Shown one piece after another: positions 2,416 to 49,760 of a stretch of DNA of 64,000 nt. The stretch lies in assembly GCF_016903815.1 (NCBI RefSeq), contig NZ_CP069973.1, one strand, 5' to 3'. Source of the stretch: Escherichia coli. Its GTDB lineage: Bacteria; Pseudomonadota; Gammaproteobacteria; Enterobacterales; Enterobacteriaceae. The notes below the pieces were generated by a model. It worked only from the letters and a program-made list of their open reading frames with translations. It was not told the DNA's origin and did not search any database. The translations under genes were made by a program, and so were the position numbers. Each line of letters begins with the position of its first letter. The stretch's first letter is position 1.

Positions 2416-3710
2416 AGACGCATCCCCTTCCCTTTGCGATGTAGCATCAAAGAAACCAGAAACGCCACCACGGCCATCAAGGTCACATACCAGAAGAAGG
2501 CTGTTTCCATTCCTATTGATTTCAGCGACAACGCTACGTACTCCGCCGAACCACCAAATATAGCATTGGCGACCGCATATGACAGACCAACACCTAATGC
2601 ACGAACCTGTGCCGGGAACATCTCAGCCTTCAGTATTCCACTGATTGAAGTATAAAAACTCACGATCAGCAGGGCACACATCACCAGACCAAAAGCGGCA
2701 TAAGGCGAGGAAACGTTTTGCAATGCTGAGAGAATAGGAACGGTAAAAATGGCTGCCAGAGAACCGAAACATAACATTGAGGTACGACGACCAATCTTAT
2801 CCGACAGCGCGCCAATGAGTGGTTGAATAAGCATGAATACAAACAATGCGGCAGTCATAATGCCACTCGCCACGTTGGCATGCATTCCCGCAGTATTTAC
2901 CAGATACTTCTGCATATAAGTGGTGAAGGTATAGAAACAAAGGGAGCCCGCAGCGGTAAAACCGAGAACCATGATGAATGCACGGCGATTGCGCCATAAT
3001 CCTTTCAGAGATCCAGCTTCTTTTAAAGCGCGTGTTTCTTGTTGTGAAGTTTCATCTAACTGACGACGTAACCACAACGCCACAACAGCTAACACAGCTC
3101 CTAACGCGAAAGGAATACGCCATCCCCACTCTCTGAGTGCAGCGTCTTCCATGGTGTGTTGTAAAACCACGACAACCAGTAGAGCTAGCAGTTGCCCGCC
3201 GATCAACGTCACATACTGAAATGATGCGTAAAAACCTTTGCGCCCTTCAACGGCAACTTCACTCATATAGGTGGCGCTGGTGCCATATTCTCCGCCAACG
3301 GATAATCCCTGGAATAAACGAGCAAGAAGCAATAATGCCGGAGCCCAGGTACCGATTGTTTCGTAGCCTGGCAAACAGGCGATAACCAGTGAGCCGAAAC
3401 ACATCATACACACCGATAACAGCATCGATTTTTTGCGACCATGTTTATCGGCTATGCGGCCAAATAGCCAACCGCCTATTGGGCGCATCAGAAATCCCGC
3501 AGCAAAAACACCTGCTGTTTGCAGTAGTTGAGTCGTCGTGTTCCCGGAAGGGAAGAAGATGTGAGCGAAGTAGAGTGAACAGAACGAGTAGACATAGAAA
3601 TCGAACCACTCGACCAGATTACCTGAAGAGGCCCCCACAATTGCCCAAATGCGGCGACGAGTATCACTACTTGTCAGTTTGCTGTCTGCCGTTACAGTAC
3701 TTTCAGCCAT
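2412..3710 (-). CDS. kgtP: alpha-ketoglutarate permease (MFS transporter)
   Basis: 432-aa product starting [11 protein letters not shown]; track ORF extends 34 codons further upstream, probably non-coding. Confidence 0.9.
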
Positions 3711-3985: not shown

Positions 3986-4741
<756 letters not shown>

Positions 4742-4845
4742 ATCAGCATACTTGTCCTTAGCCTTCTGCAGTGACAGCTGGTAGTACAGCGTGCTTCTGG
4801 CCAGCCCTGCAGCCTTTAACAGATCAGACTGGCAGTGTCCGCACC

Positions 4846-5376
4846 TCAGGCTCCGGATGACTTTCGTTTTTTCTCCAGCTCCTGGCGCTTTTTTTCCAGG
4901 AGATGCTCCTGCATGGCTTTCAGATATGCATTTTCTGCGCGAAGATAACGCAGCTCATTCTTCATCTCTTCCGGCGTCATGTTTGCCTCGTTTTCATGGG
5001 TATCATCAGAACGGGTCATGCATTTCTCCTTCCTGCGCCTGATAAAGGCCTCATTACCAGATTTGCGGTAGCCTTTTATCCAGTTTTTAACCGTGTTGTG
5101 GCTGGGAATGTTAAACCGGGCAGCTACCCGGGGTAGAGACTCAGAATGCCCGAGAGCATAAAGAACCACGCAAAGTTTATCTTCAGGAGAATAGCTACGC
5201 CTGTGTCTGCAATCCAGTGCCCGAGGACCGTGAAGAAGAAAAAGATTAATCCAGTGTGAGAGGCTGGTGTGAGAAAGTTGAAAGAGTTTTGCCGTAGAAA
5301 TGATGCCTGCATGACCAGCCAGGTAATGATTTACAGCGGCAAGTTTTACTTCAAATGAATGTTTCATAAACTGCAC
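4846..5376 (-). CDS. IS3-family transposase orfA (HTH DNA-binding part, leucine-zipper-like C-terminus)
   Basis: ORF inside the IS; 3' end carries A AAA AAC slippery heptamer (about 4868..4875) typical of IS3-family frameshifting. Confidence 0.8.
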   Translation of the reverse strand: MQFMKHSFEVKLAAVNHYLAGHAGIISTAKLFQLSHTSLSHWINLFLLHGPRALDCRHRRSYSPEDKLCVVLYALGHSESLPRVAARFNIPSHNTVKNWIKGYRKSGNEAFIRRRKEKCMTRSDDTHENEANMTPEEMKNELRYLRAENAYLKAMQEHLLEKKRQELEKKRKSSGA

Positions 5377-31198: not shown

Positions 31199-31205
31199 GT
31201 TAGCA

Positions 31206-32147
31206 TTAATTTATTTTTAATGAATGGTAATCTCGTGAGTTGACCGAAGATTTGAGATAACTGCAATCATTAACCGACAGTATTGCCGCTAATAGGCGAC
31301 ATACCAGTGCCTGCATTTGCAGCAATATATCGTTACCATATTGACTGTTGTTAACACTTGAGAAACCAAGCGGTTGACCAAAAAAAATAGCCTCATGAAA
31401 ATTATCATTGCGGATGCCAGAAATGTTTTTTTTACCTGACACCCATGTGGGGATTGATAACCCATAAATTTTGCACATCCACTTTAATCGCTTGTAATGA
31501 TTTGGCGGTTTTTTATCAGGAGCCTTGTCATGCTCAGCCCACGACAAAGCAAAGCACCCATCAAGTGCCATGTAAAGGTACTGGAATTTTTCAAAAGAAA
31601 GGTATTGTGGGTTTTGAGATAAGAATAGTGCATGCACCACTGCCGCAATTCTTTTGGGGGAGTGCGCATCCTTATGTTTGCCATTTATATAATTAAGAGC
31701 CAGTTCTATGACTTCTTTTTCAGAGCATCCAACGAGAATAAAGTCGGTTAACTTAGTGGGCTTGATAGTGGTTGCATCTAAAAAACCAGCGTCAGTGGTT
31801 GTCAATCTTATTCCCTTGAAAAAAGAAAGGCACCACACAATAAAGTTGAGAGTTTCTAACGAGGATGTATTTTTTAATTTTAGTGTGTGCGTTTTGGGCA
31901 TACTGAATACTCGGTGACTATAAGGCATTGTGGATATGCCACCATTAAGGTTATATACATCTTGGTTTCCAGGGTATATCCAACCTTTCACAACGTTTTT
32001 ATCATTATTAACACGCTCCACTTTCTCATTGAGACCAGGTAAAGTAAGCAAAGAAAATTGTTCAGTCTCAATGTTAACTTCTACTGGATAGTATCCAAAC
32101 TCCGACATAATCTCATTGGGTTGCTGTTCGTCAACTTCACCTTGCAT
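31206..32147 (-). CDS. accessory protein (313 aa) with Rx4H motif; candidate HEPN-like abortive-infection protein
   Basis: A+T-rich ORF in the region between replication gene A and cos; motif GIRNDNFHEA (R-x4-H); no other recognised domain. Confidence 0.65.
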   Translation of the reverse strand: MQGEVDEQQPNEIMSEFGYYPVEVNIETEQFSLLTLPGLNEKVERVNNDKNVVKGWIYPGNQDVYNLNGGISTMPYSHRVFSMPKTHTLKLKNTSSLETLNFIVWCLSFFKGIRLTTTDAGFLDATTIKPTKLTDFILVGCSEKEVIELALNYINGKHKDAHSPKRIAAVVHALFLSQNPQYLSFEKFQYLYMALDGCFALSWAEHDKAPDKKPPNHYKRLKWMCKIYGLSIPTWVSGKKNISGIRNDNFHEAIFFGQPLGFSSVNNSQYGNDILLQMQALVCRLLAAILSVNDCSYLKSSVNSRDYHSLKIN

Positions 32148-32384
32148 ATCTTTCTCCGTTCAAAAATAGGCTCGATAATTATCGAGAGGCTATCATGTTT
32201 GGAAAGAATCAATGTCCGTAATTTTTGTAAATTTAAGGTGATTTATCAATAAATAAGCTGTGCATGCAACAGGTGCATGGTTCTGCATGCGCCGGGGTTA
32301 CCCGTTTTGTACGTGCGCCGCAAGAGCTGGCGGGGATCCAGAGTGGTCATGCAACTGCATTAAAACCGCCCCATAAAGCGGGCA

Positions 32385-32403
32385 GGCGTGGCGGGGAAAG
32401 CAT
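32385..32403. other. candidate cos site (cohesive end)
   Basis: GGCGTGGCGGGGAAAGCAT closely resembles my recollection of the P2 cohesive end (GGCGAGGCGGGGAAAGCAC); embedded in a GC-rich non-coding stretch near Q. Confidence 0.55.
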
Positions 32404-32622
32404 TGCGCGCCAGCAGTGATGCGTAATAATAAAAATTATCCTCTGAGCGCGTCGTGATGGCGCTGTCGTGGTCGCTGCTGGTTCGTTGGTGGTCGGGTGT
32501 GTTCGTGCGCGTGAGACGCATCTGATGCGTGATGGTGGTGTGCATGGAAAAGCCACCAGGAGCAGCGGCTTTACAGGAGTGGCAGGATTCAAACTGCTAA
32601 TTATGTTTCTACTATGATTAAA

Positions 32623-33627
32623 CTAATTTACATGTATGTAGAGTTCACCGTCGCCAGACCAATCGGGACACTCTAAAACAAGCCCAAACTGCTTGAATAT
32701 TTCATCAATGATTATTGTTATCTCCCGAAAATCACCAAAACCTGTAATGTGCTGGTCATTAAACTTCCCATAAAGATTCTGAAAAGCAATGCCTAATTCT
32801 GATAATTGATATCTTATCTTTGAGTTGGATAGTGTAAGGGATAGCTTTGGATCGTATTCTTTAATATTGATGTTTAGAGAATGGACATAACCCATCGCAT
32901 AAGCATAAGAGTTGATGATTAGCCTGATACGTTTTTTTACTTCGAGATACATGTCATTCAGAGAAATATTACCGTACTTATAACCCCAGATGAGTTTTTC
33001 AATCTCGTCAGATACTTCATTTACAACAGTGTCAAGATTCTCTAAAAATAAATCGATAGTTTCTTGAGGGGCAGACCCCGAAGACATGTAATTAGCGAGA
33101 TATTCAGACCATGCACGCGTGGCTGAGATAAGAAGCGCGCTACCATACTCGTTGACTGTAAAGTTTTGGGCTAAGCATGTTAGTAAGTTTTTTTCATGTA
33201 CGTGCACTAATTCATGGTGAATGCGATGGATGACTGCGAGGTATCCTTCTTCTTTCAGTTTTAAGAAGCTACCATCATTGAAAAGCTCAACAAAAAAATC
33301 AATCGATAGCACAAGGGTATATTCTTCACATAGCCCATCATTGCCAATTTTTGTTACTAACTGCCCGACGGCTGCGCCCTGTTTGCTATTGGTAAATGAA
33401 CTAGGGGATTTGTGTTGGTAAGAGGATGTTACCTTTTGAAGAGCTTCACTGAAGTTATAGGAAACAATCACGCATTTTAATTTGGAGATATCAAGATTGA
33501 GATTTTTTGTTAAAGCTCGGATAGCTTCTAGTGTGAAATTACCGATATTATTTGCTTCTTGCTCAGTAGCGAAACCTTCGAGGGTTATTTTAAAATCAGT
33601 TTCCAAAATATTAATCTCCGCGCCCAT
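32623..33627 (-). CDS. accessory protein (334 aa) with HExxH motif; candidate zincin-like metallopeptidase
   Basis: A+T-rich ORF between cos and portal gene Q; motif HRIHHELVHVHE with Glu about 23 residues downstream. Confidence 0.65.
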   Translation of the reverse strand: MGAEINILETDFKITLEGFATEQEANNIGNFTLEAIRALTKNLNLDISKLKCVIVSYNFSEALQKVTSSYQHKSPSSFTNSKQGAAVGQLVTKIGNDGLCEEYTLVLSIDFFVELFNDGSFLKLKEEGYLAVIHRIHHELVHVHEKNLLTCLAQNFTVNEYGSALLISATRAWSEYLANYMSSGSAPQETIDLFLENLDTVVNEVSDEIEKLIWGYKYGNISLNDMYLEVKKRIRLIINSYAYAMGYVHSLNINIKEYDPKLSLTLSNSKIRYQLSELGIAFQNLYGKFNDQHITGFGDFREITIIIDEIFKQFGLVLECPDWSGDGELYIHVN

Positions 33628-42519: not shown

Positions 42520-42563
42520 AGGTGGGCGTGCCCACTGAGTTGGGTTCGATTCCCTAACCTCGT
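42520..42563 (+). other. tRNA 3'-end-like fragment (T-arm-like GGGTTCGATTCCC), not a complete tRNA
   Basis: T-loop consensus TTCGATT with flanking G/C stem; upstream part cannot be folded into a cloverleaf. Confidence 0.3.
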
Positions 42564-43390
42564 ATTATTCCTCTCGATATTTTTATTGCTGGGTTTTCCT
42601 TTCTTATTTCATTTTTAATTTGCTCATCACAAATTAAATAATCTATGTTTTTTGCTTTAACAAGTTCTTTAACGCTAATGTTAATTGAATTTAATAGATT
42701 TGCATTCCGCATGTTAGCCCCTTCATAAGTAACGGATTTAAAATCACATCCTTTTAATATGCAGCTTTTCATTTCGCTATCTGTAAAATACCCCCCTTCA
42801 AAACTGCAGTTTTCGAAAGTGACATTTTGAAAACATGTATTAAATGCCTTAATATTTCTTAGCTTGCAGTTTTTGAATTTAACACTCTTAACTCTATTGC
42901 CTGTAATATTTAGAGCTTGAATTGTGCAATTATCGAAAGAACAATCTCTAATGTATGATTCGCTCATATTCAAGCCGGTTAAGTCAGCGTCTTTAAAATG
43001 TAAATATTTGATAGTGGACATTTTATCAAGTTCAATCCTTGGAACTTGAATGTTATATATTCCTTTAGCATTTAACTGACGTATGATTTTTATCTTCATA
43101 ATATTCAGTTCTGCAGAAGAATGCTTTGCCAGATTTTCAAGATCTTCAATTAGTTCGTGAATAGCATCTTTATTTTGCCTTTTATTTTCAAAATAGTAAA
43201 GAATCACACCCAAAACAAGAAAGTCTAAAATTGAAGAATTTGCATTAACAAGAAAATTCTCCATGAATTTTGAGTTGTAGTTATCATTATAAACAGACAA
43301 CCCTACTATAAGCCCGGAGTATAAAAAAAAGATACCTATAATATATTTCATATTGCTTATTGTACGCCTAAAAGATGAAGTTCTTTTCAT
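42554..43390 (-). CDS. membrane-anchored pentapeptide-repeat protein (accessory/moron)
   Basis: Very A+T-rich ORF; start chosen at MKRTSSF (AGGT 5 nt upstream); two N-terminal hydrophobic segments, then tandem 5-residue repeats (…DADLTGLNMSESYIRDCSFDNCTIQALNITGN…). Confidence 0.7.
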   Translation of the reverse strand: MKRTSSFRRTISNMKYIIGIFFLYSGLIVGLSVYNDNYNSKFMENFLVNANSSILDFLVLGVILYYFENKRQNKDAIHELIEDLENLAKHSSAELNIMKIKIIRQLNAKGIYNIQVPRIELDKMSTIKYLHFKDADLTGLNMSESYIRDCSFDNCTIQALNITGNRVKSVKFKNCKLRNIKAFNTCFQNVTFENCSFEGGYFTDSEMKSCILKGCDFKSVTYEGANMRNANLLNSINISVKELVKAKNIDYLICDEQIKNEIRKENPAIKISRGIIRG

Positions 43391-43462
43391 TACTACCTGC
43401 CATATGTTTTGTGTGATTTTCGAATGAGTCAACACTCAAATGATACATGAATGCACACCGAA

Positions 43463-45422: not shown

Positions 45423-46023
45423 CCGGCTATTACCCGTTGGCTCGTCGCCGCTGGAGGTCGCCGCCGCCGCTGCGTTCTCTGAGATTCAGCGCGTGCCGGT
45501 ACCGCTGCGCACCCTGTGGAACTGGCGCACCTGCCCGGTAAAGCTGCTGCCGTATCTGGCGTGGGCGCTGTCGGTCGACAGGTGGGATGAGAAATGGCCG
45601 GAGGCGACAAAGCGCAGCGTCTGCGCGTCCTCGTTTTTCGTCCATCAGCACAAAGGCACCATCAGCGCATTGCGTCGGGTCGTCGAGCCGCTCGGCTTTC
45701 TGATTGAGGTGCGCGAGTGGTGGCAACTCGACGAGGAGCCAGGCACATTCCGCCTCGTTGTTGGCGTCCTCGACAGCGGCATCACTGACGAAATGTATCA
45801 GGAGCTTGAGCGCCTGATTGAAGACGCCAAACCGGCAAGTCGCCACCTGACCGGGCTGGCTATCAGTCTGAGCTCGACCGGCGAACTGTATGTCGGCGCG
45901 GGATGCTATCACGGCGACGCGCTGACTGTTTACCCCTACACCCCCGAGGAGATTGTCGTCGGCGGTGAATATTACCCGGCCTCGGCCATCCATTTGATTG
46001 ATAATCTGAGAGTGAACGCATGA
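45415..46023 (+). CDS. baseplate/tail protein I
   Basis: 202-aa product, position. Confidence 0.8.
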   Translation: MNDRLLPVGSSPLEVAAAAAFSEIQRVPVPLRTLWNWRTCPVKLLPYLAWALSVDRWDEKWPEATKRSVCASSFFVHQHKGTISALRRVVEPLGFLIEVREWWQLDEEPGTFRLVVGVLDSGITDEMYQELERLIEDAKPASRHLTGLAISLSSTGELYVGAGCYHGDALTVYPYTPEEIVVGGEYYPASAIHLIDNLRVNA

Positions 46024-46994
46024 CCGCAAAATATTTTGCCATTCTGACCAATCAGGGCGCGGCGCGGCTGGCGAACGCGGCGGCACTCGGTACCAAACTC
46101 AACCTGACGCAGATGGCCGTCGGTGATGCGAATGGTACGTTGCCGACCCCTGACCCGGCGCAGACGAAGCTCATTAACCAGAAACGCATCGCGCCGCTGA
46201 ACCTGCTGACCGTTGACCCGGCCAATACCAGTCAGATTATCGCGGAACAGATTATTCCCGAGAATGAAGGTGGTTTCTGGATCCGCGAGATTGGTCTCTA
46301 TGACGATGATGGTATTCTGATTGCCGTGGCGAACTGTCCGGAGACCTACAAGCCACAACTGCAGGAGGGAAGCGGTCGCACGCAGACCATTCGCATGATT
46401 CTGATTGTGTCGAGCACATCGGCAATCACCCTGAAAATCGACCCGGCAGTCGTGCTGGCAACGCGCCAGTATGTCGACGACAAGATTATCGAGGTGAAAG
46501 GATATGCTGATGACCTGATGAAAAAACATGTTGAGGCCGCCAATCCACACAAGCAGTACCCGTTAATCGCTAATGCTCTGAAAGAAATGGTTGACGCGGG
46601 ACTGGCCGGCGACGTTCTTAAAAACCTTGGTTTGGGAGAAGCGGCAAAACGGAATGTAGGTAACGGGCAAAACCAAATTCCGGATATGGCGGCGTTTGCC
46701 AGTTCACTTTCATCAACGGGTTTTCAAAAACTCCCTTCAGGTCTGATTATTCAGTGGGGTATTGTCAGTGGAGCATCAAACTATACGGTGACTTACCCGG
46801 TAACATTCCCAAATCGTTCACTTGCGCTGTTGGCTGTGCCACATACAACGTCGGTGGCTGGTATATCTGCAATGGGCATAGCGAACTGTTCTGATATCAG
46901 CAAATCACAGTTCTATATAATTGTTGGCGGTATATCTCAGGGAGAAATTGTCAAATATGAAAGGTCCTGTTTTTGGGTAGCAATCGGTGTATAG
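46020..46994 (+). CDS. tail fibre protein H (constant N-terminus plus currently expressed variable C-terminus)
   Basis: 324-aa ORF; C-terminal third begins at the crossover repeat and has a diverged homologue on the minus strand. Confidence 0.8.
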   Translation: MTAKYFAILTNQGAARLANAAALGTKLNLTQMAVGDANGTLPTPDPAQTKLINQKRIAPLNLLTVDPANTSQIIAEQIIPENEGGFWIREIGLYDDDGILIAVANCPETYKPQLQEGSGRTQTIRMILIVSSTSAITLKIDPAVVLATRQYVDDKIIEVKGYADDLMKKHVEAANPHKQYPLIANALKEMVDAGLAGDVLKNLGLGEAAKRNVGNGQNQIPDMAAFASSLSSTGFQKLPSGLIIQWGIVSGASNYTVTYPVTFPNRSLALLAVPHTTSVAGISAMGIANCSDISKSQFYIIVGGISQGEIVKYERSCFWVAIGV

Positions 46995-47002
46995 GTATAT
47001 CT

Positions 47003-47398
47003 ATGATTTATTTCTCAAAATCGACTAATGGTTTTTTCTTTGATGGTATAAACAGCGACATGCCTGCTGACATTGTTGAGATAAGTACAGACTTATACAA
47101 TGAATTAATTGCCGGACAGCAGGAAGGGGGGAAATTAATCACGTCAGATGAAAATGGTTTACCGGTACTGAAATCTCCGGCGATTGATTATGTCGCACGT
47201 GCGGAAAATCAGCGAATGCAGTTACTTGCTCATGCCGATAATGTCACAGCTGACTGGCGAGTGGAATTAATGCTTGGTGATATCAGCAGTACAGATAAAG
47301 AAAAACTATCCGCCTGGATGAACTACAAAAAAGAAGTAAAAGCCGTCGACACTTCGACGGCTCCTGAGATTAGCTGGCCTGAGTTACCGGAGGCGTAG
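47003..47398 (+). CDS. tail fibre assembly chaperone (G), current orientation
   Basis: Start chosen at MIYFSKSTNGFFF after H stop. Confidence 0.7.
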   Translation: MIYFSKSTNGFFFDGINSDMPADIVEISTDLYNELIAGQQEGGKLITSDENGLPVLKSPAIDYVARAENQRMQLLAHADNVTADWRVELMLGDISSTDKEKLSAWMNYKKEVKAVDTSTAPEISWPELPEA

Positions 47399-47813
47399 GC
47401 CATTCAATATCTGGCGCACTGGAAGTATTGACCTGTTCCAGTGCGTCCAGGTAATCCAGCCACAAATTATATTGCGCCAGTTCGTCACCGTTCAGACGAC
47501 CAATAGCTGCTTTACCGGGCCATTGCTTACTGTTCATGTAGTCGTTTGCCTGGTTGATTTTTTTCTGCTTTTCGGCGTTCGCAGCTTCCACTTCTTCATC
47601 GTGACTTAACGGTGGTAAATCCACCCATACAGGCTGCCCATTTTCATCAGCGCCGCGGGTTTGCCCTTCTGGTGGCATTCCTGAATATGTGAGAAAAACG
47701 TCATCAGAAACACCTACTAAGTCATCTGGCCAGGTGTTGGCTGCTATGTACAGCGACTTCATTTCTTCAGGGTAAAAACCTAGAGTTGATGGAGAAAAAT
47801 AATAAAGAGTCAT
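47370..47813 (-). CDS. alternative tail fibre assembly chaperone (G')
   Basis: 147-aa ORF convergent with G; shares C-terminal motif (…SAPDIEWPTPP vs …TAPEISWPELP). Confidence 0.7.
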   Translation of the reverse strand: MTLYYFSPSTLGFYPEEMKSLYIAANTWPDDLVGVSDDVFLTYSGMPPEGQTRGADENGQPVWVDLPPLSHDEEVEAANAEKQKKINQANDYMNSKQWPGKAAIGRLNGDELAQYNLWLDYLDALEQVNTSSAPDIEWPTPPVTQAS

Positions 47814-47814
47814 A

Positions 47815-48165
47815 TCAGCTTCCTATTGCGAACCAGCGAAAGACATAAACCCCAGATGTTGCATCACAGCGCATCAGGAAATTTGTTTTTGTAAAACTTC
47901 CTGCCGCTCCCGCAATAACCTTTCCACCACCATTGTCGTAAGAGACTACAACCTGATGGCAAATGTTCGGAAAAGAAACCGAGAAGTTAATTGCATTTCC
48001 CGTATTACCTGTCGCACCCACTCCGGCTGTTGCTGATCCCCATTGAATGATTAAGCCGCTAGGTAGTTTTTGATATCCAGCAGCACCCGTTACAGACAAA
48101 AATGAATTTATATCTGGAATCTGGTTTTCCCCTGTTCCGACATCCCGTTTCGCTGCTTCTCCCAA
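47815..48165 (-). CDS. alternative tail fibre C-terminal segment (H'), silent in this orientation
   Basis: Homologous to H C-terminus (GEAAKR.VG.G.NQIPD…YQKLPSGLIIQWG); has no promoter or start of its own. Confidence 0.6.
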   Translation of the reverse strand: MGEAAKRDVGTGENQIPDINSFLSVTGAAGYQKLPSGLIIQWGSATAGVGATGNTGNAINFSVSFPNICHQVVVSYDNGGGKVIAGAAGSFTKTNFLMRCDATSGVYVFRWFAIGS

Positions 48166-48236
48166 ACCAACCTTTTAGAAAATGCAGATATTCCGTTCAG
48201 CTGGCATGTTTCCGACTTTTTACCGGGTTATTTCTC

Positions 48237-48483
48237 ATGTTTATCGGTTATGTACGTGTATCAACAAATGACCAGAACACCGCATTACAGCGAAATGAAC
48301 TGGAGTGCGCAGGATGTGAGCTGATTTTCGAAGATAAAATCAGCGGCAAAACATCAATCAGACTGGCCGGGGCTAAAGAGGTTACTCAGAACCTTGTCAG
48401 AGGGCGATACGCTTGTGGTCTGGAAACTGGATCGCCTCGGGTATCTCAACGCTATACAAACAATTTCCCGCATCCGTTGCTGA
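48237..48483 (+). pseudogene. Hin/Gin/Pin-family serine DNA invertase, frameshifted and 3'-truncated remnant
   Basis: N-terminus MFIGYVRVSTNDQNTALQRNELECAGCELIFEDKISGK matches the invertase catalytic region; homology continues in another frame (…PGLKRLLRTLSEGDTLVVWKLDRLG) after an A4 run at 48349..48352, then is lost before a stop at 48481. Confidence 0.75.
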
Positions 48484-48581
48484 TGTCTCAATGTGTCAGA
48501 CATCGCCCAACACTGACAAATAGCCCCTCAACAGACCAGCCAGGACAATAACACTTGCCCACTAACCACGGAGTTAACCGG

Positions 48582-49760
48582 ATGAGTGATTTTCACCACG
48601 GCGTGCAGGTGCTTGAGATTAACGACGGCACCCGCGTCATTTCCACTGTTGCAACCGCAATTGTCGGCATGGTCTGCACGGCCAGCGATGCGGATGCCGA
48701 GACATTCCCCCTCAACGAACCGGTATTGATTACCAATGTGCAGAGCGCCATTGCAAAAGCCGGTAAAAAAGGCACGTTGTCTGCCTCCCTGCAGGCTATC
48801 GCCGACCAGTCAAAACCCGTCACAGTTGTCGTGCGTGTTGCCGAAGGTACCGGAGAAGACGCCGAAGCGCAGACCATTTCCAATATCATCGGCGGCACGG
48901 ATGAGAACGGTAAATATACCGGCATCAAGGCGCTGTTGACTGCCGAAGCAGTCACCGGCGTTAAGCCGCGCATTCTCGGCGTGCCGGGTCTCGATACCAA
49001 AGAGGTCGCAGTCGCACTTGCTTCGGTCTGTATCAGCCTGCGCGCGTTTGGTTATGTCAGCGCATGGGGTTGTAAAACCATTTCCGAGGCGATGGCCTAT
49101 CGCGAGAATTTCAGCCAGCGCGAGCTGATGGTCATCTGGCCTGATTTCCTTGCATGGGATACCACCACAAACGCCACCGCACCGGCATACGCAACTGCGC
49201 GCGCACTCGGCCTGCGTGCCTATATCGACCAGACCGTCGGCTGGCACAAAACCCTGTCTAACGTCGGCGTGCAGGGTGTTACCGGCATCAGTGCGTCAGT
49301 GTTTTGGGATTTGCAGGCATCCGGCACCGATGCTGATCTGCTCAACGAGGCCGGGGTCACGACACTGGTGCGTAAGGATGGCTTCCGCTTTTGGGGTAAC
49401 CGCACCTGCTCTGATGACCCGCTTTTCCTGTTTGAGAACTACACCCGCACCGCGCAGGTGCTGGCCGACACGATGGCCGAGGCGCACATGTGGGCGGTCG
49501 ATAAGCCCATCACCGCATCACTTATCCGTGACATTGTCGACGGCATTAACGCCAAATTCCGCGAGCTGAAATCAAACGGCTACATCGTGGACGGTGAATG
49601 CTGGTTCGACGAGGAATCGAACGATAAGGAAACCCTCAAGGCCGGGAAACTGTATATCGACTACGACTATACACCGGTTCCACCACTGGAAAGCCTAACC
49701 CTGCGCCAGCGTATCACCGATAAATATCTGGTGGATCTGGCCGAATCGGTCAACAGCTAA
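48582..49760 (+). CDS. tail sheath protein FI
   Basis: Start at MSDFHHGVQVLEINDGTRV; recognised P2 FI-like sequence. Confidence 0.9.
   Translation: MSDFHHGVQVLEINDGTRVISTVATAIVGMVCTASDADAETFPLNEPVLITNVQSAIAKAGKKGTLSASLQAIADQSKPVTVVVRVAEGTGEDAEAQTISNIIGGTDENGKYTGIKALLTAEAVTGVKPRILGVPGLDTKEVAVALASVCISLRAFGYVSAWGCKTISEAMAYRENFSQRELMVIWPDFLAWDTTTNATAPAYATARALGLRAYIDQTVGWHKTLSNVGVQGVTGISASVFWDLQASGTDADLLNEAGVTTLVRKDGFRFWGNRTCSDDPLFLFENYTRTAQVLADTMAEAHMWAVDKPITASLIRDIVDGINAKFRELKSNGYIVDGECWFDEESNDKETLKAGKLYIDYDYTPVPPLESLTLRQRITDKYLVDLAESVNS

Follow-up and report, generated by a model that had tools for sequence, protein, structure and literature searches.

The stretch of Escherichia coli DNA considered here (64 kb of contig NZ_CP069973.1, hereafter the window) differs by a single nucleotide over its 64 kb from the corresponding sequence of strain 2779, a blood isolate from Houston (NZ_CP103521.1). 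The annotation of that chromosome places in it a 186/P2-type prophage located between yfiB and rplS, with the integrase beside yfiB and an ogr-like regulator beside rplS (Table 1). All prophage genes are annotated as intact with one exception, an invertase locus flanked by the tail-fibre genes and the tail sheath gene FI and recorded in RefSeq as a pseudogene ("recombinase family protein, frameshifted"). Several features of the window lie away from this locus. A pentapeptide-repeat protein gene, cargo that is absent from P2 and 186, occurs amid the tail and baseplate genes in the orientation opposite to its neighbours (42554-43435, minus strand). The portal-to-replication interval (ca. 31200-33610) comprises a block of hypothetical genes (WP_225568245.1, WP_164966458.1, WP_001622299.1 and WP_001622297.1), which is possibly accessory or defence cargo. 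An IS3-family transposase gene with a programmed frameshift (ca. 4019-5367) abuts the 5S end of an rRNA operon.

Table 1. The prophage, its invertible tail-fibre segment and the adjoining invertase remnant (window positions).
Feature	Position	Strand	Details and basis
186/P2-type prophage	23628-55241	-	ca. 31.6 kb; annotation of NZ_CP103521.1
Tail-fibre gene H	46020-46994	+	324 aa in the window orientation; ORF list
Left crossover site, 12-2-12, hix/gix/cix-like	46615-46640	+	TTCTTAAAAACC TT GGTTTGGGAGAA; inside H; sequence, inverted repeat and clone-mate endpoints
Invertible segment	46629-48168	.	ca. 1.54 kb; 46643-48154 is an exact reverse complement in strains 222, 5283 and record vB_EcoM-613R3
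Tail-fibre assembly gene	47003-47398	+	annotation
Tail-fibre assembly gene	47370-47813	-	convergent with the preceding gene; annotation
Silent alternative fibre C-terminal exon	47815-48165	-	annotation
Right crossover site	48157-48182	+	TTCTCCCAAACC AA CCTTTTAGAAAA; inverted relative to the left site; sequence
Remnant piece 1, original frame	48237-48356	+	codons 1-40, MFIGYVRVSTNDQNTALQRNELECAGCELIFEDKISGKTS; Pfam Resolvase match and alignment to intact invertases
Putative recombinational enhancer	48259-48321	.	two Fis-consensus-like 15-mers; motif scan
Tandem duplication ATCA/ATCA	48353-48360	+	4 bp; frameshift, secondary lesion; alignment with JX21CE33 and pro483
Remnant piece 2, second frame	48361-48441	+	DWPGLKRLLRTLSEGDTLVVWKLDRLG; translation and comparison with JX21CE33
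Internal deletion junction	48439-48441	+	311 bp, ca. codons 67-170; GG(G) microhomology; flank-wise local alignments
Remnant piece 3, third frame	48440-48523	+	last 27 codons and ancestral stop TAG at 48521-48523; translation and alignment to intact 3' ends
Homologue of the phage 186 B-protein (late activator) site for pJ	48490-48509	+	alignment to U32222.1 features
Homologue of the phage 186 late promoter pJ	48521-48558	+	start point ca. 48558; predicted, drives the tail sheath operon; alignment to U32222.1
Tail sheath gene FI	48582-49760	+	ATG at 48582; annotation and ORF list

Within the invertible segment, each of two fibre C-termini is followed by its own assembly gene (131 and 147 aa), and the arrangement is complete in either orientation. 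Gene H combines a constant part (residues 1-211) with an expressed variable C-terminus of 113 aa. In-silico inversion of the segment converts the 324-aa product into one of 320 aa, the first 211 residues being common to both and the C-terminal parts being different, and the annotation carries no pseudogene flag on the fibre or assembly genes in either orientation. Both 26-bp crossover sites are contained in an inverted repeat (46621-46687 and 48110-48176) whose 67-nt arms are 82% alike and include an identical run of 16 bp at the crossover. The right site is identical in the aligned loci that carry the remnant (strain 222, VG888 and CH423/CH425). As judged from its sequence, the DNA substrate of the switch is intact, with both crossover sites present and both fibre C-termini accompanied by their assembly genes.

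Downstream of the segment, positions 48237-48523 are recognisable as the wreck of a Hin/Gin/Cin/Pin-type (Din-family) serine invertase gene. An uninterrupted ORF of ca. 185-200 codons is absent, and homology to invertases is scattered over three frames. The initial annotation had already recognised here the start of a Hin/Gin/Pin-type recombinase, a jump of the homology to another reading frame after an A4 run, and a stop after roughly 80 codons. The first piece does begin at ATG 48237, with 40 typical codons and the catalytic Ser kept in the motif YVRVST, and the second frame terminates at 48481-48483, ca. 82 codons into the gene. The frame jump is likewise real, but the A4 run is not its cause: the reading frame is shifted by the duplicated ATCA, and the A4 run just 5' of it is unchanged in the alignment with strain JX21CE33 and phage pro483. 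In the second piece, the conserved Arg of the DRPG motif has been changed to Trp (DWPG). The third piece reads GISTLYKQFPASVADVSMCQTSPNTDK up to the stop, or ISTLYKQFPASVADVSMCQTSPNTDK and stop in summary form.

The internal deletion was mapped by separate local alignment of each flank to JX21CE33, pro483 and MET_P1_103_31; a full-length MAFFT alignment misplaced it, and the flank-wise alignments resolved its placement. In this comparison set, the invertases of phages pro483 and MET_P1_103_31 are intact, and the JX21CE33 gene is full-length but frameshifted by 1 nt. The latter, a P2-type prophage gene that reads ISGKTSDRPGLKRLLRTLSEGDTLVVW, is the closest relative of the remnant (87.5% at the nucleotide level). 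The lengths balance, since 594 + 4 - 311 gives the 287 bp found between 48237 and 48523. When the frameshift was repaired, the resulting peptide matched the Resolvase N-terminal model (PF00239) only, over positions 2-78 of 145, and Pfam found no helix-turn-helix (HTH) domain in it. The catalytic domain is incomplete, with the Ser present and everything from DRLG/R onward deleted, and from the region encoding the C-terminal HTH DNA-binding domain just the last 27 codons of the gene are left, out of frame. The earlier statement that the last two-thirds of the gene, including the DNA-binding domain, are missing before FI does not hold for the 3' end of the gene, which is kept, the deletion being internal; nearly all of the domain is gone. 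Descent from the Din family is supported by the 87.5% nucleotide identity to the JX21CE33 gene, by the 85% amino acid identity between the repaired N-terminus and the intact invertase of the phage-plasmid pMB9880_2 (see below), and by the alignment of the 3' end to pro483.

With half of the catalytic domain and nearly the whole DNA-binding domain deleted, the prophage cannot make its own invertase, in agreement with the initial annotation, which concluded that it cannot invert its own segment. From the loss of this enzyme it follows, again as first proposed, that any inversion would have to be catalysed in trans. Lesions in invertase genes also occur in other members of this phage group. The JX21CE33 gene (locus L019, 3054-3607) is broken by a 1-nt deletion in an A run, and in phage "P2" from O157:H43 T22 (KC618326.1; locus L004, 3515-4009) a 4-nt deletion leaves a 164-aa invertase without the DNA-binding domain. 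Invertase decay looks recurrent in this phage group, with a different small lesion in each of these genes. The decay of the window's invertase gene is itself of an ordinary kind.

BLASTN searches revealed the full-length remnant in 34 of 5,426 complete E. coli genomes, originating from many laboratories, with 97.6-100% identity. In the VG888 lineage, both the deletion junction and the ATCA duplication are present. The CH423 lineage has the same deletion junction without the duplication, together with a separate 1-nt deletion at 48369. Since the deletion occurs in both lineages checked and the duplication is lineage-specific, the deletion came first and the frameshifts represent later decay. 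The 311-bp deletion was thus the primary inactivating event, and all 34 remnants, which share it, go back to that one event. These data also bear on the suggestion that sequencing or assembly produced the frameshift, or even the entire remnant, and that the gene is really intact. The initial annotation had considered an error at a homopolymer for the frameshift, and the nearness of the A4 run is the only element that speaks for an artefact. Yet the shift is a 4-bp duplication, with no change in homopolymer length, that recurs in many independent assemblies; the remnant occurs in 34 complete genomes from different studies; and both lineages checked carry the 311-bp deletion, one of them without the duplication. 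Sequencing error is thus excluded, and an artefact can be given practically no credence. The fibre cassettes that accompany this remnant form at least three different pairs, in VG888-46E9 (locus L003), in CH423 (locus L009) and in the window itself (46629-48168), which indicates that cassettes have been exchanged around a constant, dead invertase locus across E. coli lineages.

The initial annotation further presented the switch as apparently locked, a view that comparisons among close relatives contradict. Strain 5283 (Houston) has no difference from the window over 50 kb (50,000 aligned positions), apart from the exact reverse complement of 46643-48154, and strain 222 (Boston) displays the same exact inversion with 2 SNPs elsewhere in 50 kb. 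A second pair, CH423 and CH425, comes from one hospital in Islamabad, with chromosome lengths 5 bp apart; the two are identical over 6.8 kb except for an exact inversion of 1,837 bp, and their crossover sites have just 15 identical bases in common. In these comparisons of clone-mates, the inversion endpoints always fall inside the 26-bp sites. Seven genomes carry a remnant that is 100% identical to that of the window. Four of these have the window orientation, and three match only from inside the repeat onward, as the opposite orientation predicts; for two of the three (222 and 5283) this orientation was confirmed directly. Over 6.55 kb, the GenBank prophage entry vB_EcoM-613R3 differs from the window in nothing but the orientation of the segment. 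This record was considered as evidence of particle production and rejected as such, since the corresponding preprint places these phages in the genomes of the isolates, which reads as in-silico prophage calling.

Sequencing reads greatly exceed the repeats in length, which makes it implausible that these inversions arose by mis-assembly. As the genomes with the opposite orientation carry the same dead invertase, inversion postdates the death of the gene. A switch locked in an absolute sense is thus not supported, and the segment appears to have flipped after its invertase was destroyed, although one or two inversion events are all that the orientation differences in the window's clone need. 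This small number of events would also suit a switch that is truly locked, in which the two orientations would be an old polymorphism, or would stem from separate lysogenisations by phage stocks of either orientation, with no inversion since the invertase died. The failure to detect any Din-family invertase on the chromosome and three large plasmids of strain 2779 points in the same direction. However, both orientations share the deletion, the duplication and the Arg-to-Trp change, and both occupy the same attachment site in chromosomes that are 0-2 SNPs per 50 kb apart. The unrelated pair CH423/CH425 displays the same pattern, and the lesions are older than the split between lineages with different cassettes, so that the polymorphism would have to have stayed unflipped throughout. 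A lock dating from the death of the gene is therefore considered improbable, and flipping after that event is retained here as the working interpretation. The segment of strain 2779, for its part, probably does not flip at present.

The source of the recombinase was sought on chromosomes and plasmids. BLASTN searches with the remnant and a 150-bp catalytic-core probe detected invertase-like sequences in ca. 3,600 of the 5,426 genomes, pinE being among the annotated matches. On the seven chromosomes of the window's clone, BLASTN searches using N-terminal (200 bp) and catalytic-core probes, with a detection limit of ca. 68% nucleotide identity, revealed only the remnant. The search of the genome for an intact Pin/Gin-family invertase, a check put forward in the initial annotation, had a different outcome in different strains. 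In strain 2779, neither annotation nor TBLASTN identified a Din-family invertase on the three large plasmids (an IncI1 plasmid, an IncF plasmid with CTX-M-15 and a 49-kb phage-plasmid); their sole TBLASTN match was a fragment of resolvase type, which the annotation lists as a recombinase family protein truncated at its N-terminus. Coverage of a fourth plasmid (5.2 kb) was partial. The 49-kb phage-plasmid of this strain, pMB9272_3 (locus L016, 12125-16360), has a full fibre gene followed by a fibre fragment that lacks the N-terminus and has its own assembly gene. These genes all share one strand, an invertase was not detected, and the arrangement may be the remnant of another cassette system.

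In strain 5283, the outcome was positive. This strain has a 97-kb P1-like phage-plasmid, pMB9880_2, which encodes an intact invertase of 190 aa (locus L022, 36344-36916) beside its own multi-site fibre inversion region. This is the enzyme to which the repaired N-terminus of the remnant is 85% identical. The crossover sites of the plasmid have the form AAAACG TT GGTTTGGGGGAAGG, and one of them reads exactly TTGGTTTGGGAGAA, as in the window. The invertase gene of P1-like plasmids is common in E. coli, with 127 records at 99% identity or more. The fibre region of pMB9880_2 (locus L022, 36982-42447) contains at least seven crossover-type sites in both orientations and resembles the Min system of p15B rather than the two-site C segment of P1. 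The opposite orientation is likewise found in strains 222 and 103. Nothing P1-like was found in the first 3 kb of each plasmid of strain 222 (of 279 kb in total), and neither 222 nor 103 is among the best 60 of 952 matches to the P1-like invertase.

Taken as a whole, these observations are probably best explained by flipping through a related invertase that was supplied in trans from a co-resident element, and in strain 5283 the pMB9880_2 enzyme may have performed it. That serine invertases can complement one another was recognised in the 1980s. The P segment of prophage e14, for instance, is a substrate for PinQ of prophage Qin (PMC12529663), fibre segments switch orientation in ST131 prophages that have no invertase (bioRxiv 10.1101/2022.05.07.487787), and constant flipping has been measured in P2-like prophages of E. 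coli (PMC4272514).

Two other sources of inversion have to be weighed. The first dispenses with any site-specific enzyme and invokes RecA-dependent homologous recombination, or replication slippage, between the 67-bp imperfect inverted repeats. The repeat itself, with arms that are 82% alike and a 16-bp identical run at the crossover, is compatible with this mechanism, as are the chromosomes of the clone, on which no invertase was seen. Yet the crossover sites of CH423 and CH425 share 15 bp, which is too few, and their inversion is nevertheless exact and falls within that 26-bp site; the 16-bp identical run maps onto a canonical 12-2-12 invertase site, and the flipped clone-mate 5283 carries a matching invertase. 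Homologous recombination is thus very unlikely to account for the inversions. The second places the activity in a divergent serine recombinase resident in the clone, on the chromosome or on an unexamined plasmid, which would be invisible to BLASTN and would flip the segment in all strains of the clone, the P1-like plasmid being incidental. The ca. 68% identity limit leaves room for such an enzyme, and strains 222 and 103 are flipped with no P1-like plasmid found in the plasmid sequence sampled. It is, however, difficult to reconcile with the results of two independent probes, which match ca. 3,600 of 5,426 genomes and retrieve the remnant alone on the seven chromosomes of the clone, or with the TBLASTN search of the three large plasmids of strain 2779, in which a resolvase-type fragment was the only match. 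A divergent resident enzyme thus seems unlikely, and supply in trans by a related invertase remains the preferred reading.

Both ends of the dead gene have been retained, and each coincides with a candidate cis-acting element. At the 5' end, two Fis-like 15-mers have their centres at 48266 and 48314, a spacing of 48 bp, and the first is 96.5 bp from the centre of the right crossover site. A pair of this kind arose in 1.3% of shuffled sequences, and the pair is conserved across five related invertase genes, with the qualification that the motif is degenerate and lies within former coding sequence, so that its conservation may reflect the protein once encoded. In hin, gin and cin, the enhancer is located in the 5' coding region, and wild-type Din invertases require an enhancer on the same DNA molecule. 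Given this requirement in cis, the retained 5' end would explain how flipping could continue with an enzyme supplied in trans. The geometry of the putative enhancer agrees with that published for Hin-type recombination, in which the enhancer lies ca. 100 bp from one site and comprises two Fis sites ca. 100 bp from hixL, with an "ATTTA/TAATG" description (PMC3798978).

At the 3' end, the homologue of the phage 186 B site lies inside the retained part of the invertase gene, and the B site and pJ homologues are at the same distance from the start of the sheath gene as in phage 186. A deletion reaching the B site would probably silence the tail operon. In pro483 (locus L005, ca. 3035-3075), whose invertase is intact, the last codons of the gene overlap the late-activator site of the sheath-operon promoter, so that coding sequence and promoter share bases. 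The function of the enhancer and selection for both ends are proposed here as a working hypothesis. Survival of the two ends could instead be a historical accident, because a single deletion event underlies all 34 remnants.

Based on these elements, the following sequence of events may be proposed. The 311-bp deletion killed the invertase, and the 4-bp duplication and the Arg-to-Trp change came later. The 5' 200 bp of the dead gene would have been kept with the likely Fis-dependent recombinational enhancer that they carry, and the 3' 83 bp with the late-activator site of the tail sheath operon promoter. From then on, the segment would invert only when a co-resident element supplies a related invertase in trans, a concrete candidate donor being the Cin/Min-like enzyme of P1-like phage-plasmids. 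Where the donor enzyme is missing, as is apparently the case in strain 2779, the segment would stay in its last orientation. A bolder and more tentative version, which we regard as possible and somewhat doubtful, sees in the remnant a retained composite cis-regulatory module, in which the 5' end provides the Fis enhancer and the 3' end the late-activator site, and in the lineage a switch that has no invertase of its own and uses those of other elements in the cell, such as P1-like phage-plasmids. If this were true, host-range switching would depend on the mobile elements that share the cell.

For genome annotation, these data illustrate that a dead invertase beside an invertible segment does not amount to a frozen switch, as a compatible incoming enzyme can change the orientation. 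The receptor specificity of the prophage particles could hinge on an unrelated phage-plasmid, a small case of cross-talk between mobile elements. With regard to gene decay, the overlap with an enhancer and a late promoter may influence what is left of a gene as it dies. The finding leaves the current understanding of serine invertases unchanged, the system being of a known kind and the principle of cross-complementation already established.

Several known systems offer points of comparison. With phage 186 (U32222.1), the resemblance concerns pJ and its B site: window positions 48490-48558 align base for base, upstream of the sheath gene. Phage 186 lacks both an invertase and an invertible segment there, whereas the activator site of the window prophage and of pro483 forms part of the 3' end of an invertase gene. 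With the C segment and Cin of P1, and with Min of p15B, the prophage shares the exchange of fibre C-termini through inversion at 26-bp sites that belong to the same sequence type, and the location of an invertase directly adjoining one crossover site. The sites of the P1-like pMB9880_2 (...TT GGTTTGGG(G/A)GAAGG) and of the window (TT GGTTTGGGAGAAGC) match in the inner half-site. In contrast to P1 and p15B, the adjoining invertase of the window is dead, and the window has two sites and two cassettes only.

A parallel for flipping in trans is the P segment of e14 with Pin and PinQ, where a fibre segment is flipped by the invertase of another element in the same cell (PMC12529663). However, e14 retains pinE, whereas the cognate gene in the window has been destroyed, making supply in trans obligatory. 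In Salmonella, the Fin invertase of prophage Fels-2 reportedly cross-acts on the H segment of the Hin system, a result attributed to Kutsukake and colleagues in 2006. In that case, the invertase of a P2-type prophage and a chromosomal switch cross-react, and recombination depends on Fis and the enhancer. The Salmonella switch differs in controlling a flagellin promoter instead of a fibre gene, and both of its enzymes are intact. The G segment and Gin of Mu share with the prophage the overall design, in which two fibre C-termini and their own assembly genes reside on the segment, leaving only the constant 5' portion of the fibre gene beyond its limits. In the Mu system, the enhancer occupies the 5' end of the invertase gene; here, a 186/P2-type phage carries the system, its enzyme gene no longer functions and the enhancer is putative. 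The system is thus a further member of the classical G/C/P-segment family in which the enzyme gene has decayed, and it departs from that family solely in having no functional cognate invertase adjoining the segment.
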